Made by a program: the position numbers and the translations under genes
Shown: positions 58,425-63,312 of the stretch, piece by piece
Layout of the letters: the number at the start of each line of letters is the position of its first letter
How positions within the stretch are numbered: position 1 is the stretch's first letter
The notes under the pieces: generated by a model
Database searches by the model: none
What the model was told of the DNA's origin: nothing
Seen by the model: only the letters and a program-made list of their open reading frames with translations
Origin: Lentimicrobiaceae bacterium
Lineage (GTDB): Bacteria > Bacteroidota > Bacteroidia > Bacteroidales > JAAYJT01
Assembly: GCA_037445555.1 (NCBI GenBank)
Contig: JBBIKG010000008.1
Coordinates: forward strand, 14,945 to 78,944
Length of the DNA stretch: 64,000 bases
Reading direction: 5' to 3'

Positions 58425-58796
58425 GGGACTGACCGGTTTTGACAGCAAGGAAGTGGTATTGTAAGCATGCCGGGCGTTGTGTTTTGGCCCGTTAATCCCA
58501 ATGCATATGCCAGATAAATGGCAACAATTACAATTACTCGTTAGCTGCTTAATCAAGCCTGATTAGGCGCTTTCTGCTTCCCGCAAAACTTTGCCTGGTG
58601 GTGTTGCGTACGAAGCATCGAAAAAACCGGGATTGGAAAGGTTCTGCTCTGCCGCCTTTCTGAAAAATCAGGAGCTAAGGATGTGGTGGGTTTGCCTTTG
58701 ACCAGTCTACATCCCGACAAGATAACAAAGGCTAAGCATGTAGAAAGCAGTATTGCTGCTTGTTTGGACGAGGGTTCGACTCCCTCCAGTTCCACC
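58425..58796 (+). ncRNA. ssrA: tmRNA (transfer-messenger RNA)
   Basis: The 5' GGGACUG pairs with the 3' CAGUUCC (G3:U wobble, the Ala identity element), followed by ACC. There is a T-arm GGGTTCGACTCCC. The tag reading frame is ggc aac aat tac aat tac tcg tta gct gct taa (58520-58552), giving GNNYNYSLAA*. Confidence 0.92.
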
Positions 58797-59091: not shown

Positions 59092-59154
59092 CTCTGACAC
59101 GATCCGACTGAAAAACTTATCTTAACCGACTGAAATAGAAAACATAACTTGTAC

Positions 59155-62100
59155 ATGATTTTAAAAGAATTGAAACCTCGGAAGGCACTAAACAAAGCCT
59201 TTTTAAAAGTAAAACCGAACAGGACTGAAATTGAAGGTTTCAAGACTAATCTCATTACTTTACTCGAAAGGACAAATGACACGGAAAGCGAAGAGTTTCA
59301 TAAAAATTTGGTTTCCGACTTTCTTAAAGACACTTATTACAAGCAAAATCACTTTATAAATACCAAAGGTCGAAACGACCTTGTTATTCATAACGGACAA
59401 AATGCAAACTCGACAGTTGGAGTAATTATCGAAGCGAAAAAACCGACCAACAAAGCAGAAATGATTACTACCAAAAAACTGAATGCAAAAGCATTTCAGG
59501 AATTGGTTTTGTATTACCTACGTGAGAGAATTACACACAAAAATCTTGAAGTAAAACATTTGGTGGCGACCAACATAAACGAGTGGTTCATTTTTGACGC
59601 TACCCTATTCGACAGACTTTTTGCACAAAACAAAAACCTTGTAAAGCAATTCAACGACTTTGAAGCAGGTCGTTTGGCAGACACCAAAACGGACTTTTTC
59701 TACAAACAAGTTGTCGAGCCATTTATTGACCAATTATTAACTCCCCTCCCTGAAGGAGGGGCTGGGGGTGGGATTGAATTTACTTACTTCAACATTCAGG
59801 ACTTTCAAAAAACCATACGAAATAACGACAAAGCAGACGATAATTCGCTTATTGCCTTGTTCAAACTTTTATCGCCAGAGCATCTTCTAAAACTTCCGTT
59901 CACCAACGACAGCAACAGCCTTGACAAAAGATTTTACAGCGAGTTGTTGCACATCATCGGCTTGACCGAAACCAAAGAAGGAAGCAAAAAACTGATTGAA
60001 CGAAACAAAACAGGCGAACGAAACACAGGAACAATCCTTGAAGATGCTATTATTCAACTTGACAGCTTAGATAAACTTAGCCGACTTGAAAAGCCAAACC
60101 TCCCGATAGCTATCGGGATCGGAAACACACAGCAAGAAAGACTTTTTAATGTTGCTCTTGAACTTTCAATCACTTGGATAAACCGTATTTTGTTTTTGAA
60201 GTTGTTGGAAGCCCAACTCATCACCTATCACAAAGGCGACAAATCGTTTTCGTTTCTCAATCTTGACAAAATCAAAAACTATGACGACCTGAACAGCTTG
60301 TTTTTTCAGGTGTTGGCTCGTAAGTATGACGAGCGAAACGAAGATGTAAAAATGATTTTTGAGAAAGTGCCTTACCTCAATTCTTCTCTTTTCGAGCCGA
60401 CCGACATTGAGCAGGTTACTTTGTTTATCAGTAATCTGAAAGACGATAAAACTATTCCGATTTTTTCGCAAACCGTGCTGAAAGACCAGCAAGGAAAAAA
60501 ACGGACAGGCAACCTTTCAACGCTTCAATACCTGCTTGAGTTTTTGGATGCTTACGACTTTGGGGCAGAAGGCGGAGAAGAAATTCAGGAGGACAACAAA
60601 ACGCTTATCAATGCTTCGGTTCTTGGATTGATTTTCGAGAAAATAAACGGCTATAAAGACGGTTCGTTTTTCACTCCGGGTTTCATCACAATGTATATGT
60701 GCCGTGAAACCATTCGCAAAGCGGTGGTGCAGAAATTCAACGAAACCAAAAAATGGAACTGCACAACGCTTGAAGAACTTTACGACAAAATTGAAGACCG
60801 AAAAGAAGCCAACAAAATTGTAAACAGCATCAAAATTTGCGACCCTGCCGTTGGCTCCGGACACTTTTTGGTTTCGGCACTCAATGAAATGATTGCCGTT
60901 AAAAACGACTTGAAAATTCTGCAAGACCGTGACGGAAAACGCCTGAAAGAATATCAGGTGGAAGTGGTAAATGATGAATTGATTGTAACAGACGAAGAAG
61001 GAGAACTTTTTGAATACAACCCTACCAACAAGGAAAGCCAACGCATACAGGAAACACTGTTCCACGAAAAGCAAACCATTATTGAAAACTGCCTTTTCGG
61101 TGTGGACATCAATTCCAACTCTGTTAAAATTTGCCGTTTGCGTTTGTGGATTGAGCTTTTAAAAAACGCTTACTACATTCAAAGCTCCTCCCCTAATATA
61201 GGGGAGGTGTCCGAAGGACGGAGGGGTCAAGAACTATTAAATAACCTGCCATATTTAAAAACCTTCCGTAAAAATCTCCGCAAGAATCTGACTCCGGCAG
61301 AAGCTAAACTTTGGACAATGTTGAAAGGGAGGCAAATGGAAGGAAGAAAATTTAGAAGGCAACATAGTGTGGCTAATTATATTTTAGATTTTTATTGTCC
61401 TGAGGAACGACTTGCAATCGAATTAGACGGACAAGGGCATTTTGAGGATACTCAGGCAGAGTATGACCGCGAAAGAGATTTGTTTCTGGAGGCGTGTGGC
61501 ATTCGTGTATTAAGATTTGAGAACAAATGGGTGTGGGATAATCCTGACGGGCTGCTTGAGGAAGTAAAGAAGTATTTTGGCAAACAACCACCCCGTCAGC
61601 CTGTGGCTGACACCCCTCCTTACAAAGGAGGGGAACTATACAACCCCGGCTTTTCAAGCCACCCCTCCTTAATAGGAGGGGAGCTTAATGAGTTGCAAAC
61701 GCTACCGAATATTGACATCAACATCAAATGCGGAAACTCTTTGGTGAGCCGTTTTGCCATTGATGCTGACCTGAAACAAGCCTTGAAAAAAAGTAAGTGG
61801 ACCATTGACAGCTACCGAATTGCTGTTGACACATACCGCAATGCTGAAAGCAAGGAACAGAAAAGAGAAATGGAACGGCTGATTGCCGACATCAAATCGG
61901 ATTTCAGAAGTGAAATTGCTAAAAGTGATCCGAAGGCAAAAAAGCTGTATAGCCTCAAAGGAGAGCTACTCACACGAGCTACTCAGTATAAACTTTTTGA
62001 AATGAGCAAAAAGGAAAAAGCCGATTGGAACATAAAAGTAACGCAACTGACCGAAGAAACCAAAAAACTGGAGGCCGAAATTGAAGAAATCAATAACAAC

Positions 62101-63312
62101 AAGATTTTTGAAAATGCTTTTGAATGGCGTTTTGAATTTCCCGAAGTGCTGAATGATGATGGCGATTTTGTGGGCTTCGATGTGGTTATTGGAAATCCGC
62201 CGTATTTGACAGGCTCTGCATTTAGAGAGTATCAAAGTTTTTTCAACGCTACCTTCTCAACTGCGGAATATCAATTAGACCTTTATACTTTTTTCATTGA
62301 GTTGTCATATGGAATACTCAAATCAAAAGGAATTATTTCTCTTATCACACCAAATTCTTGGTTGAAAAATTTAAGGATGTCAAAAACAAGAAAATTTATT
62401 CTTGATAAATTTACAATCAAAGCATTAAATCCACATATCGCAAAAGCATTTGACGAAGCTTCGGTTGATACGCTCATTTTTATTGCATTTAAAGCTAAAA
62501 ACGAAAACAATTCACTTGAAATTTTTGATTTCAATTCATTAAAAAACTCTTTTACAAAAAATTCAATTCATCAAAACAGATTTTTAGAAAATGACAATTT
62601 AGTATTTGACGTTGAAGTTGATGAATCAGTTTTATTAATTCTGAAAAAAATCAGAAGCAATAGCGATATTCTTGCGGATAAATTTGAAATTACGAGAGGA
62701 GTAAATCCATACGATAAATATAGAGGACAAACTGAAGATGTTATTTCAACTAGAGCCTACCATTCTTCAACACAAAAAGACGACACATTTGTTCCCGAAC
62801 TTAAAGGCAAACACGTTTCAACATTCCACTATAAATGGGACAAAAAACATTTCATTAGTTACGGAAGTTGGTTAGCCGCGCCGAGAGAACCGAAATTTTT
62901 CAAAGGTATAAGGATAGTTTTTCGTGAAATTATCGGGGAACGATTTGTTTGCGCTGTAATTGAAGAAGATTTTATAATAGACCGCAGTCTATACATTGCA
63001 CTTCCTAAAGACGAAGAAATTGATGTTTATTACATTTTAGGTGTTTTATGTTCAAAAATGCTTGTGTGGCTATTTAAGTATGAGAAAAATGAATTTGACG
63101 AATTGTTCCCAAAAATCAGGCTTGAAGAATTTAAAAAGCTGCCTATTCCGAAAAGCAATAATCTCAAAGCAATAGGCAAGTTGGCTAAAGAAATTACAAA
63201 GTTGAAACAGCAAGGGATATACACAAGAGAAGAAGAAAACCAAATAGACCAATTGGTTTACCAACTTTACGACCTGACCGAAGAAGAAATTAAAATCATT
63301 GAGAACAGCTAA
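59155..63312 (+). CDS. Type IIG restriction-modification enzyme (PD-(D/E)xK nuclease + gamma-class N6-adenine methyltransferase, Eco57I-like + TaqI_C-like specificity region) with an in-frame DUF559 insertion
   Basis: ATG at 59155 (the track's TTG is 6 nt upstream). The N-terminus has D...EAK (NDLVIHNG...VGVIIEAKKP). Motif I is CDPAVGSGHFLV. Also NIKCGNSLVSRF and motif IV VVIGNPPY. The C-terminal third is a target-recognition-like region (ITRGVNPYD...). Confidence 0.85.
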   Translation: MILKELKPRKALNKAFLKVKPNRTEIEGFKTNLITLLERTNDTESEEFHKNLVSDFLKDTYYKQNHFINTKGRNDLVIHNGQNANSTVGVIIEAKKPTNKAEMITTKKLNAKAFQELVLYYLRERITHKNLEVKHLVATNINEWFIFDATLFDRLFAQNKNLVKQFNDFEAGRLADTKTDFFYKQVVEPFIDQLLTPLPEGGAGGGIEFTYFNIQDFQKTIRNNDKADDNSLIALFKLLSPEHLLKLPFTNDSNSLDKRFYSELLHIIGLTETKEGSKKLIERNKTGERNTGTILEDAIIQLDSLDKLSRLEKPNLPIAIGIGNTQQERLFNVALELSITWINRILFLKLLEAQLITYHKGDKSFSFLNLDKIKNYDDLNSLFFQVLARKYDERNEDVKMIFEKVPYLNSSLFEPTDIEQVTLFISNLKDDKTIPIFSQTVLKDQQGKKRTGNLSTLQYLLEFLDAYDFGAEGGEEIQEDNKTLINASVLGLIFEKINGYKDGSFFTPGFITMYMCRETIRKAVVQKFNETKKWNCTTLEELYDKIEDRKEANKIVNSIKICDPAVGSGHFLVSALNEMIAVKNDLKILQDRDGKRLKEYQVEVVNDELIVTDEEGELFEYNPTNKESQRIQETLFHEKQTIIENCLFGVDINSNSVKICRLRLWIELLKNAYYIQSSSPNIGEVSEGRRGQELLNNLPYLKTFRKNLRKNLTPAEAKLWTMLKGRQMEGRKFRRQHSVANYILDFYCPEERLAIELDGQGHFEDTQAEYDRERDLFLEACGIRVLRFENKWVWDNPDGLLEEVKKYFGKQPPRQPVADTPPYKGGELYNPGFSSHPSLIGGELNELQTLPNIDINIKCGNSLVSRFAIDADLKQALKKSKWTIDSYRIAVDTYRNAESKEQKREMERLIADIKSDFRSEIAKSDPKAKKLYSLKGELLTRATQYKLFEMSKKEKADWNIKVTQLTEETKKLEAEIEEINNNKIFENAFEWRFEFPEVLNDDGDFVGFDVVIGNPPYLTGSAFREYQSFFNATFSTAEYQLDLYTFFIELSYGILKSKGIISLITPNSWLKNLRMSKTRKFILDKFTIKALNPHIAKAFDEASVDTLIFIAFKAKNENNSLEIFDFNSLKNSFTKNSIHQNRFLENDNLVFDVEVDESVLLILKKIRSNSDILADKFEITRGVNPYDKYRGQTEDVISTRAYHSSTQKDDTFVPELKGKHVSTFHYKWDKKHFISYGSWLAAPREPKFFKGIRIVFREIIGERFVCAVIEEDFIIDRSLYIALPKDEEIDVYYILGVLCSKMLVWLFKYEKNEFDELFPKIRLEEFKKLPIPKSNNLKAIGKLAKEITKLKQQGIYTREEENQIDQLVYQLYDLTEEEIKIIENS
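59743..59761. repeat. Mini-palindrome family A copy (CCCCTCC-ctgaa-GGAGGGG), translated in-frame as ...PLPEGGAGGG...
   Basis: Perfect 7-bp GC-rich arms inside the R-M ORF. Confidence 0.85.
60101..60118. repeat. Mini-palindrome family B copy (TCCCGATAGCTATCGGGA), translated in-frame as ...LPIAIGIG...
   Basis: Perfect 18-bp palindrome inside the R-M ORF. Confidence 0.85.
61187..61207. repeat. Mini-palindrome family A variant (CCTCCCCT-aatat-AGGGGAGG) at the left edge of the DUF559 insert
   Basis: Perfect 8-bp arms, followed by a second small hairpin (gtcc-gaa-ggac). Translated as SSPNIGEVSEGRRG. Confidence 0.85.
61246..61578 (+). mobile_element. DUF559 / Vsr-like endonuclease module nested in-frame within the R-M gene
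   Basis: LPYLKTFRKNLRKNLTPAEAKLWTMLKGRQMEGRKFRRQHSVANYILDFYCPEERLAIELDGQGHF...YDRERDLFLEACGIRVLRFEN matches the remembered DUF559 pattern (LR...T.aE..LW..LR......FrRQ..i..yi.DF.c...klviE.DG..H......D..Rd..L...G..vlRf). Confidence 0.7.
61613..61633. repeat. Mini-palindrome family A copy (CCCCTCCT-tacaa-AGGAGGGG) at the right edge of the DUF559 insert
   Basis: Perfect 8-bp arms. Translated as TPPYKGGE. Confidence 0.85.
61662..61681. repeat. Mini-palindrome family A copy (CCCCTCCT-taat-AGGAGGGG), second copy at the right edge
   Basis: Perfect 8-bp arms. Translated as HPSLIGGE. Confidence 0.85.

Follow-up and report, generated by a model that had tools for sequence, protein, structure and literature searches.

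How does a nuclease domain come to lie within the catalytic core of a restriction enzyme, in a gene whose reading frame nevertheless stays open from end to end? The question is raised by a 64-kb stretch of a Lentimicrobiaceae genome (contig JBBIKG010000008.1, positions 14,945 to 78,944; hereafter the window, meaning the whole stretch of DNA analysed), in which a gene on the forward strand at 59149–63312 encodes what is, judging from its domain architecture, a Type IIG restriction-modification enzyme (Eco57I/MmeI-like) made as a single polypeptide. Its methylase domain is interrupted by an insert of 513 nt, or 171 codons (61177–61689, forward strand), that carries a DUF559 nuclease core between inverted, hairpin-bearing modules. 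A sequence-only reading of this DNA had offered two interpretations: a selfish hairpin–DUF559–hairpin cassette that had transposed into the gene and is tolerated in frame, or a new restriction-modification architecture with two nucleases. The cassette is optional, bounded by modules, read through in frame and recurrent in many, mostly restriction-modification, proteins. We consider it probable that the segment is a mobile-element-like module–nuclease–module cassette lodged in frame in a permissive methylase loop, a selfish element spread by recombination and tolerated by its host.

An optional nuclease domain in a methylase loop

The host gene is an intact frame of 1387 codons in the list of open reading frames (ORFs), in keeping with the earlier claim that the whole frame stays open. 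Pfam resolves it into an N-terminal PD-ExK-type nuclease region (DUF7149, residues 8–254), the helical DUF7814 (residues 255–487), a gamma-class N6-adenine methylase domain (Eco57I, residues 647–1093), which is one stretch split by the insert, and the TaqI_C specificity domain (residues 1216–1333). The protein matches the PADLOC profile REase_MTase_IIG (PDLC03612) with an E-value of 6.5e-239, and the methylase motifs DPAVGSGHF and NPPY can be read in its translation. An exact-protein look-up found no identical copy of the window protein on record.

The insert lies in a loop of the methylase domain, without a start codon of its own. Pfam recognises in it a DUF559 domain (PF04480, residues 704–808, positions 61258–61572; E 1.1e-30), which bears out the proposal of a DUF559/Vsr-like module nested in frame in a Type IIG methylase. 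The core as delimited by Pfam, PDB match, fold and conservation is somewhat longer (61237–61596, forward strand; LNNLPYLKTF...GKQPPR) and is a predicted Vsr-fold PD-(D/E)xK nuclease. It resembles PDB entry 3HRL in sequence (E 2.6e-18) and in fold (template-modelling (TM) score 0.86, root-mean-square deviation 1.4 A; Foldseek), and shows a weaker fold match to the catalytic domain of the homing endonuclease I-Bth0305I (TM 0.71; Foldseek). DUF559, Vsr and I-Bth0305I have been grouped in one PD-(D/E)xK cluster (PMC3424549). The motif GRKFRRQ.S..NYILDFYCP.E.LA.ELDG..H...D..R is intact in the window, and across 81 copies, both nested and free, its conservation is at least 90%. Between nested copies of the core the proportion of nonsynonymous differences (pN) is 0.07–0.2 against a saturated synonymous proportion (pS) of 0.7–1.0, and a pN so far below pS indicates strong purifying selection on the nuclease. 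In the filled alleles the flanking host sequence is likewise constrained (median pN 0.15–0.30, pS about 0.77). Raw pS and pN are used throughout, since saturation of the synonymous sites made the corrected synonymous rate, dS, not computable for most pairs. Among the catalogued defence-system proteins in PADLOC the insert has no place, with only weak matches to DpdF and mREase_II.

An AlphaFold (AF2) model of residues 470–1110 (mean predicted local distance difference test score, pLDDT, 77.5; predicted TM score, pTM, 0.46) assigns the DUF559 core a pLDDT of 87–96 and the module-encoded peptides on both sides of it values below 50; outside DUF559 the model fold-matches CamA, M.TaqI and M.BseCI (Foldseek). 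As modelled, the insert is a discrete domain on disordered linkers, and the Pro/Gly-rich peptides encoded by the modules, being predicted to be disordered, can serve as flexible linkers. Within the insert (positions 61200–61600) G is in strong excess over C: the skew in 200-nt windows reaches +0.41 there, whereas elsewhere in the gene it stays near 0.

The boundaries of the insert follow from DNA alignment with one filled allele (L001) and one empty allele (L003); here and below, P-numbers denote homologous proteins and L-numbers DNA loci, and P0011 corresponds to L148, P0103 to L149 and P0090 to L151. The insert takes the place of the four codons KNAT. The empty site reads ...NAYY/KNAT/ELETLPNID... 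(in DNA ...TACAAAAACAGCACAGAACTCGAAAC...), and the inserted peptide starts with I-Q-S-S and ends with G-G-E-L-N ahead of ELQT. The best 120 of 8000 host homologues were examined and sorted by the linker that runs from ...LLKNAYY to LPNIDINIKCGN. The site is empty in 86 of the 120, with a linker of eight residues that is mostly KNATELET; 12 have a linker of 14–20 residues, and the remaining 22 carry a DUF559 insert of 155–262 residues at exactly the window's site. The nearest whole-gene relative of the window gene has the empty site, and the gene is 81–96% identical in nucleotides to the empty L003 over its whole length (150-nt windows; one at 69%). Most of the closest Type IIG homologues thus lack the segment, as had been surmised, and this is not the distribution of an ancient fixed domain; all the filled alleles read as DNA (those of the window, L001 and L148, together with the genome loci filled here) have a module on at least one flank. 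What emerges is a presence/absence polymorphism at one fixed site, the pattern expected of a homing endonuclease gene. At the DNA level the junctions of 11 alleles were tabulated (the window, nine filled loci and the empty L003), and every insert length is divisible by three, though the number of tandem units varies at both ends. Just upstream of the insert, 29 nt (TGCCGTTTGCGTTTGTGGATTGAGCTTTT) are invariant in three aligned alleles.

When the N-terminal and C-terminal halves of the homologues were clustered separately (unweighted pair-group averaging on identity), the filled alleles were dispersed among the empty ones in both, and their nearest neighbours were mostly empty. The alleles are mosaic as well. 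The window gene is 88–95% identical to the filled L074 in its N-terminal part, but the two inserts are only 74–80% identical, the same nucleotide identity that separates the window insert from its closest sampled counterpart. The filled P0011 and the empty P0103 are 98–100% identical over most of their first 1650 nt (one 150-nt window at 91%), 84–86% identical in the 300 nt before the site and 82–84% after it, and their specificity regions are unrelated. The dispersal of filled alleles, together with these mosaics, suggests that the insert is gained or lost via recombination between alleles, a process that the insert's own nuclease may drive.

Hairpin modules at the ends and on their own

Three perfect hairpins bracket the nuclease, at 61187–61207 (9-bp stem), 61613–61633 (9 bp) and 61662–61681 (8 bp), and a mini-hairpin, TCCGAAGGA, lies at 61210–61218. 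Shuffling the whole window 100 times gave 0 matches to hairpins of this type, so none of the GC-rich hairpins noted in the sequence-only reading would be expected by chance. They are parts of conserved modules of about 50 nt that are arranged as inverted terminal repeats, with three copies at the insert. The left module (61182–61228, forward strand) comprises the tag AAGCT, hairpin 1 (CCTCCCCTA-ATA-TAGGGGAGG), TG, hairpin 2 (TCCGAAGGA) and the G-rich tail CGGAGGGGT; it encodes the linker SSSPNIGEVSEGRRG, predicted to be disordered (AF2 pLDDT below 50), and its DNA fold has a z-score of -3.5. The two hairpins on the right belong to two tandem modules, both inverted and hence on the reverse strand. 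The inner one (61587–61637) comprises AGTT, hairpin 1 (CCCCTCCTT-TGT-AAGGAGGGG), T, hairpin 2 (GTCAGCC-ACA-GGCTGAC) and GGGGTGGT; it encodes QPPRQPVADTPPYKGGEL, and 0 of 200 shuffles fold as well as its DNA (z = -5.5). The outer one (61640–61686), a tandem second copy, comprises AAGCT, hairpin 1 (CCCCTCCT-ATTA-AGGAGGGG), T, hairpin 2 (GGCTT-GAA-AAGCC) and GGGGTTGT; its DNA fold has a z-score of -4.8, the direct repeats D3/D4 are spaced 48–49 nt apart, and it is missing from the L001 allele, which has one right module. Left and right modules conform to one consensus, which gives the insert the terminal inverted repeats of a transposon or of a miniature inverted-repeat transposable element.

The host gene also has a solo module of a short form, 1.4 kb upstream of the insert (59739–59773, forward strand), which comprises AACT, hairpin 1 (CCCCTCC-CTGAA-GGAGGGG), CT and GGGGGTGGG. 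It is in frame, encodes PLPEGGAGGG and has a DNA fold of z = -0.9; in the indel table of homologues it is present only in P0001, P0020 and P0036, and it is decayed in L004. Its hairpin, at 59743–59761, is the only further one of this type in the 64 kb, and the window holds no other copy of DUF559.

A consensus was built from 80 genome loci anchored on the hairpin. Read from the outside to the inside, the module consists of the tag A(A/G)CT, hairpin 1, TG, hairpin 2 and the tail CGGGGTGGT. Hairpin 1 is CCCCTCCTT-loop-AAGGAGGGG in the consensus, with CCTCCCC and CTCCTCC as variants. Hairpin 2 differs in sequence and length from module to module with its pairing kept, and is absent from the short form: of 272 modules, 149 contain a spacer no shorter than 11 nt, and in 77% of these 149 a perfect stem of four or more base pairs can form, compared with 11% when the sequence is shuffled; hairpin 2 occurs in 69 distinct sequences. 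No Rfam family matches any module. The arms of hairpin 1 resemble a Shine–Dalgarno sequence (AAGGAGG) paired with an anti-Shine–Dalgarno-like CCTCCTT, for example at 61613–61633, and the stems are free of stop codons in all six frames.

The same hairpin 1 flanks this DUF559 clade, nested or free, in the 80 genome loci, which belong to several phyla. Up to 100 nt from the DUF559 core the density of hairpins is 6.5 per kb, and farther out than 400 nt it is 0.01–0.05 per kb, which makes for an enrichment of about 500-fold close to the core. The modules were also sought by their pattern, without reference to DUF559. On viral contigs 92 of the 94 modules found have no DUF559 within 300 nt and 14 of the 94 lie deep inside long open frames; on metagenome contigs, among the matches listed, the corresponding figures are 84 and 18 of 86 evaluable modules. 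Some viral contigs carry 5–7 copies, and the proteins that host viral modules in frame (L138, L097, L084, L095, L121, L130 and L127, all on IMG/VR contigs) include SPP1-type and Mu-type portal proteins, a large terminase subunit and an AAA ATPase.

The loop that houses the cassette also receives other palindromes. In Chryseotalea sp. (L150, CP073016) unrelated short palindromes (ACCTGCCTGACCGGCAGGT and similar) lie in frame at residues ~220, 364 and 682, and one of 21 nt (CTGCCTAGCCGGCAGG) is inserted cleanly between TAC and AAAAAC at the site of the DUF559 cassette. L152 has in the same loop, at residue ~677, a solo module of a sister type (CCCTCTCC/GGAGAGGG). The empty alleles L003 and L149 have no such palindromes or modules.

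Recurrence in other proteins and competing explanations

The arrangement is not a one-off: related cassettes occur in other Type IIG enzymes, in HsdS, HsdM and Type ISP proteins and in unrelated ones, and other copies and empty sites are found in related genomes. In a scan of one genome per species, all loci at least 67% identical to the window core, and several at 62–66%, are nested in frame in a long ORF, and more distant DUF559 relatives are stand-alone ORFs of 120–170 codons. About 26 of the 28 nested genome loci are restriction-modification proteins. They comprise the window's own Type IIG family, with the insert at the same site; two other Type IIG groups (L016/L021/L022 and L017/L024/L028), with the insert after methylase motif X; Type I HsdS, with the insert between the two target-recognition domains; Type I HsdM; and Type ISP enzymes, with the insert within Type_ISP_C. 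Further hosts are one unknown protein and an IcmF-like B12 mutase–MeaB fusion (L044). An independent search of 1.8 billion representative proteins (50%-identity representatives) returned 24,702 members of the DUF559 family. The best 150 of these include 21 long proteins, 20 of which were scanned, and 18 of the 20 are restriction-modification proteins: nine HsdS, five Type ISP and four Type IIG, one of the last (P0256, Eco57I-type) with two DUF559 copies. The other two hosts are an HPPK (P0311) and a TPR-SpoIIE phosphatase (P0313). A protein of 377 residues, P0251, consists of three tandem DUF559 domains and is not a nested host.

In a clustering of the DUF559 domains, copies nested in different hosts interleave with one another and with free copies. 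In L027, an allele filled at the same site as the window gene, the DUF559 belongs to a divergent lineage, and a different lineage (IIPYNPKLKELARELRNN...) lies in frame in P0090/L151 at residues ~517–708. It occupies another loop, after methylase motif X, equivalent to the insertion site in the two other Type IIG groups, and its modules are divergent but alike in build (TCCCCTC-TTGA-GAGGGGA followed by GGGGTGTG). Such matching divergence of nuclease and modules suggests that the two have co-evolved. No close relative above 60% identity was found on plasmids. Taken together, the nested copies form a widespread and apparently undescribed family of optional inserts, mostly within restriction-modification proteins; no published description of DUF559 cassettes nested in such proteins, or of the module, was found in a literature search of incomplete coverage.

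The reading that we favour would account for these patterns as follows. Homologous recombination would carry the cassette, a selfish element, from one allele of its host gene to another. The stimulus would probably come from its own nuclease, which would nick or break empty alleles in the manner of homing or, alternatively, act on the modules in a way akin to that of the tyrosine transposases (RAYTs) associated with repetitive extragenic palindromic (REP) sequences. The cassette would reach new genes rarely. The modules would be its cis-acting ends, far more numerous as solo, non-autonomous elements, much as REP sequences outnumber the RAYT gene. Restriction systems may protect a cassette that lives within their methylation and specificity parts, as a frameshift or imprecise deletion would cripple methylation while restriction persists; residence there would be favoured because frame-breaking mutations are punished by the cognate restriction activity. 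The proposal of a selfish cassette tolerated in frame is thus supported by its optional occurrence, inverted modules, non-homologous sites and predicted discrete fold. As for the transposition that went with that proposal, no target-site duplication is seen and the spread looks recombinational.

Several observations weigh against a selfish, self-propagating cassette. The filled alleles at the window's site all have one common junction. Alignments with filled and empty alleles reveal no clear target-site duplication at the insert, where about 12 nt are replaced, and neither a target-site duplication nor a common target motif was found across hosts, which have nothing in common there but a stretch rich in A ahead of the tag. 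A single ancient insertion followed by ordinary recombination and specificity-domain swapping would explain the scatter of filled alleles without homing, and one crossover tied to such swapping would suffice to produce the P0011/P0103 mosaic. In comparisons with L074, L008 and L148 the insert is more diverged between alleles than its flanks (74–83% nucleotide identity and pS 0.7–1.0 versus 90–96% and, in close pairs, pS 0.3–0.5), which is not what simple homing with co-conversion predicts. As DUF559 is missing from the vicinity of most modules, nuclease and module could be connected indirectly. The bias towards restriction-modification proteins, the purifying selection and the lack of a start codon would equally suit a domain that serves its host, and the activity of the nuclease, its target and the movement of the cassette are all conjectural.

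The bias, the selection and the missing start codon also speak for the foremost alternative, which we judge unlikely but worth serious attention: that DUF559 is an adaptive accessory of restriction-modification enzymes, recruited repeatedly for the benefit of the host as a second nuclease or nickase, as a source of breaks, close to where conserved parts give way to variable ones, that promote the exchange of specificity domains between alleles, or as an effector. To the preponderance of restriction-modification hosts among both the genome loci and the long representatives, the strong purifying selection and a domain that is always in frame and never has its own start codon can be added the 6 of 47 stand-alone copies that directly adjoin a restriction-modification gene, the inserts of P0008 and P0011, which are nearly identical yet joined to unrelated specificity domains, and the position of the P0011/P0103 crossover, about 350 nt from the site. 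A 'DUF559 domain-containing protein' has, moreover, been listed with the enriched targets of programmed inversion, next to Eco57I methylases (PMC9881135). A domain recruited for the host is nevertheless hard to reconcile with its absence from the 86 close homologues, the nearest relative included, or with its non-homologous positions in unrelated subunits, among them the non-catalytic HsdS. It also occurs in the IcmF-like mutase, HPPK and the TPR-SpoIIE protein, and its terminal modules are the same as those on free-standing copies and on solo elements in phage structural genes. Its flanks are predicted to be disordered, and at a pTM of 0.46 packing of the domain against the methylase cannot be claimed. 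The two-nuclease architecture is disfavoured relative to the selfish cassette.

Somewhat less probable still is that modules and nuclease are unrelated passengers, the modules being REP-like or regulatory palindromes at permissive spots and DUF559 having been captured once between two of them, with the cassette spreading since then only as the host gene underwent general recombination and was passed on horizontally. The single junction common to all filled alleles of the host family would fit such a capture; more than 97% of the modules in the unbiased scans (for the metagenomes, among the matches listed) are without DUF559 within 300 nt, and the same loop holds an unrelated palindrome in L150 and a solo module in L152. 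Chance association is, however, at odds with the roughly 500-fold enrichment of hairpins beside DUF559 in 80 loci, across phyla and in at least eight insertion contexts, and with the second DUF559 lineage and its matching but divergent module type. Furthermore, the interleaving of nested copies from different hosts with free ones requires that nuclease and modules moved together repeatedly.

Other identities for the insert, such as an intein or intron, a chimera of the assembly or a fragment of a decaying pseudogene, are scarcely credible: a conserved enzyme core is indeed interrupted at a fixed site, but the frame is open in every filled allele, the inserts read as DNA are multiples of three under strong purifying selection, and the same junction recurs in independent NCBI, JGI, ENA and Logan assemblies. 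Searches for elements of known class returned neither a Hint domain (Pfam) nor a Cys/Ser...His-Asn junction, and no Rfam match to a group I or group II intron at E up to 5 in a frame that is open and under purifying selection. Apart from its terminal inverted repeats the insert does not resemble a transposon of known class either: no target-site duplication is seen, and DUF559 is the sole encoded protein, with no DDE, HUH or serine/tyrosine recombinase domain.

Likeness to known elements and the setting of the gene

The cassette shares traits with several kinds of selfish element and differs from each of them. The free-standing homing endonuclease genes of the Vsr-like/EDxHD type (I-Bth0305I; the 'fractured genes' of Dassa et al. 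2009, PMC2677866; PMC3239194) likewise place a gene for a small Vsr-fold nuclease at a fixed site in a conserved enzyme gene, with hairpins beside it; like the window insert they are polymorphic, and the I-Bth0305I catalytic domain is the one whose fold matches the insert at TM 0.71. They differ in that they lie in group I introns or between the halves of split inteins and have their own start and stop codons, so that splicing restores the host (PMC2677866, PMC3239194), whereas the window cassette has no intron or intein, its nuclease is translated within the host protein, and it is flanked by conserved, inverted modules of two hairpins each, which occur on their own as well.

Another parallel is the ShiLan element in an actinophage DNA methylase, which, in those parts of the report on which we draw (Arsenault et al. 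2025, PMC11855218), is a homing-like insertion that leaves the host frame open, is neither intein nor intron and is predicted to loop out of the methylase. Its endonuclease is of the HNH type and in a different frame from the host, whereas DUF559 is in the host frame, and terminal hairpin modules such as those of the window cassette are not described in the same parts of the report. ShiLan is there described chiefly from actinophages, with similar out-of-frame HNH insertions reported in other phages and in prokaryotes; the DUF559 cassettes, by contrast, extend over several phyla of bacteria and are lodged in restriction-modification proteins of several classes.

REP/RAYT pairs (REPtrons) and Rickettsia palindromic elements (PMC3733652) offer the same layout, with one nuclease-type gene between inverted copies of a short tagged palindrome, solo copies that are far commoner, and insertion in frame in genes without destroying them. 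However, RAYT is an HUH (Y1) tyrosine transposase and the REP tag is GTAG or CGTC (PMC3733652), whereas the window gene encodes a putative PD-(D/E)xK Vsr-fold nuclease, its tag is A(A/G)CT (AGCT/AACT) with the tail GGGGTGGT, and it is the nuclease gene itself that enters coding regions. With the layout shared but enzyme and tag different, the likeness is one of analogy and not of membership. Inteins, finally, are also selfish nuclease-bearing elements that lie in frame in a conserved enzyme and are translated with it; the window insert has no Hint domain or splice-junction residues, and must stay in the mature protein.

The common view is that a selfish nuclease gene can reside in an essential or conserved gene with an intron or an intein as its splicing vehicle, and must otherwise lie between genes. 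In the present case the nuclease appears to remain in the mature protein on flexible linkers of its own making, and this recurs in different phyla, for the most part in restriction-modification proteins. It is tempting to go further and to speculate, with distinctly less assurance, that the DUF559 proteins of this clade are the mobilising enzymes of widespread two-hairpin palindromic elements, in a partnership like that of RAYT and REP but built on the Vsr fold. The elements would be readable in any frame; the autonomous form would reside inside the methylation and specificity parts of restriction-modification systems, its frame policed by post-segregational killing; its breaks may drive the exchange of specificity domains; and solo modules would colonise phage structural genes. 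Should its flanking modules or empty alleles prove to be what the nuclease acts on, a function would be at hand for DUF559, a very large orphan family of about 25,000 representative clusters, an enzyme would be identified behind dispersed palindromic repeats that also occur in phage genes, and the evolution of restriction specificity would gain a new player. Of more immediate use, current annotations such as 'DUF559 domain-containing' or 'very-short-patch-repair endonuclease' mask the restriction-enzyme identity of the hosts, and the insertion sites mark loops that tolerate a domain of 170 residues, which should be helpful in engineering Type IIG, Type I and Type ISP enzymes.

A transfer-messenger RNA (tmRNA) gene at 58425–58796 (forward strand; tag peptide GNNYNYSLAA) ends about 350 nt upstream of the restriction gene, and the G+C content of the restriction gene, approximately 0.25–0.42, is below the 0.45–0.55 of its neighbours. 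The adjacency and the low G+C together suggest an island at the tmRNA gene; between the 3' end of the tmRNA and the sequence downstream of the restriction gene no convincing direct repeat was found. Within the host protein itself, an insertion of five residues, LPIAI, in a loop of the helical domain (residues ~316–320, positions ~60094–60108) is common, among the 120 homologues, only to the window protein, P0011 and P0103.

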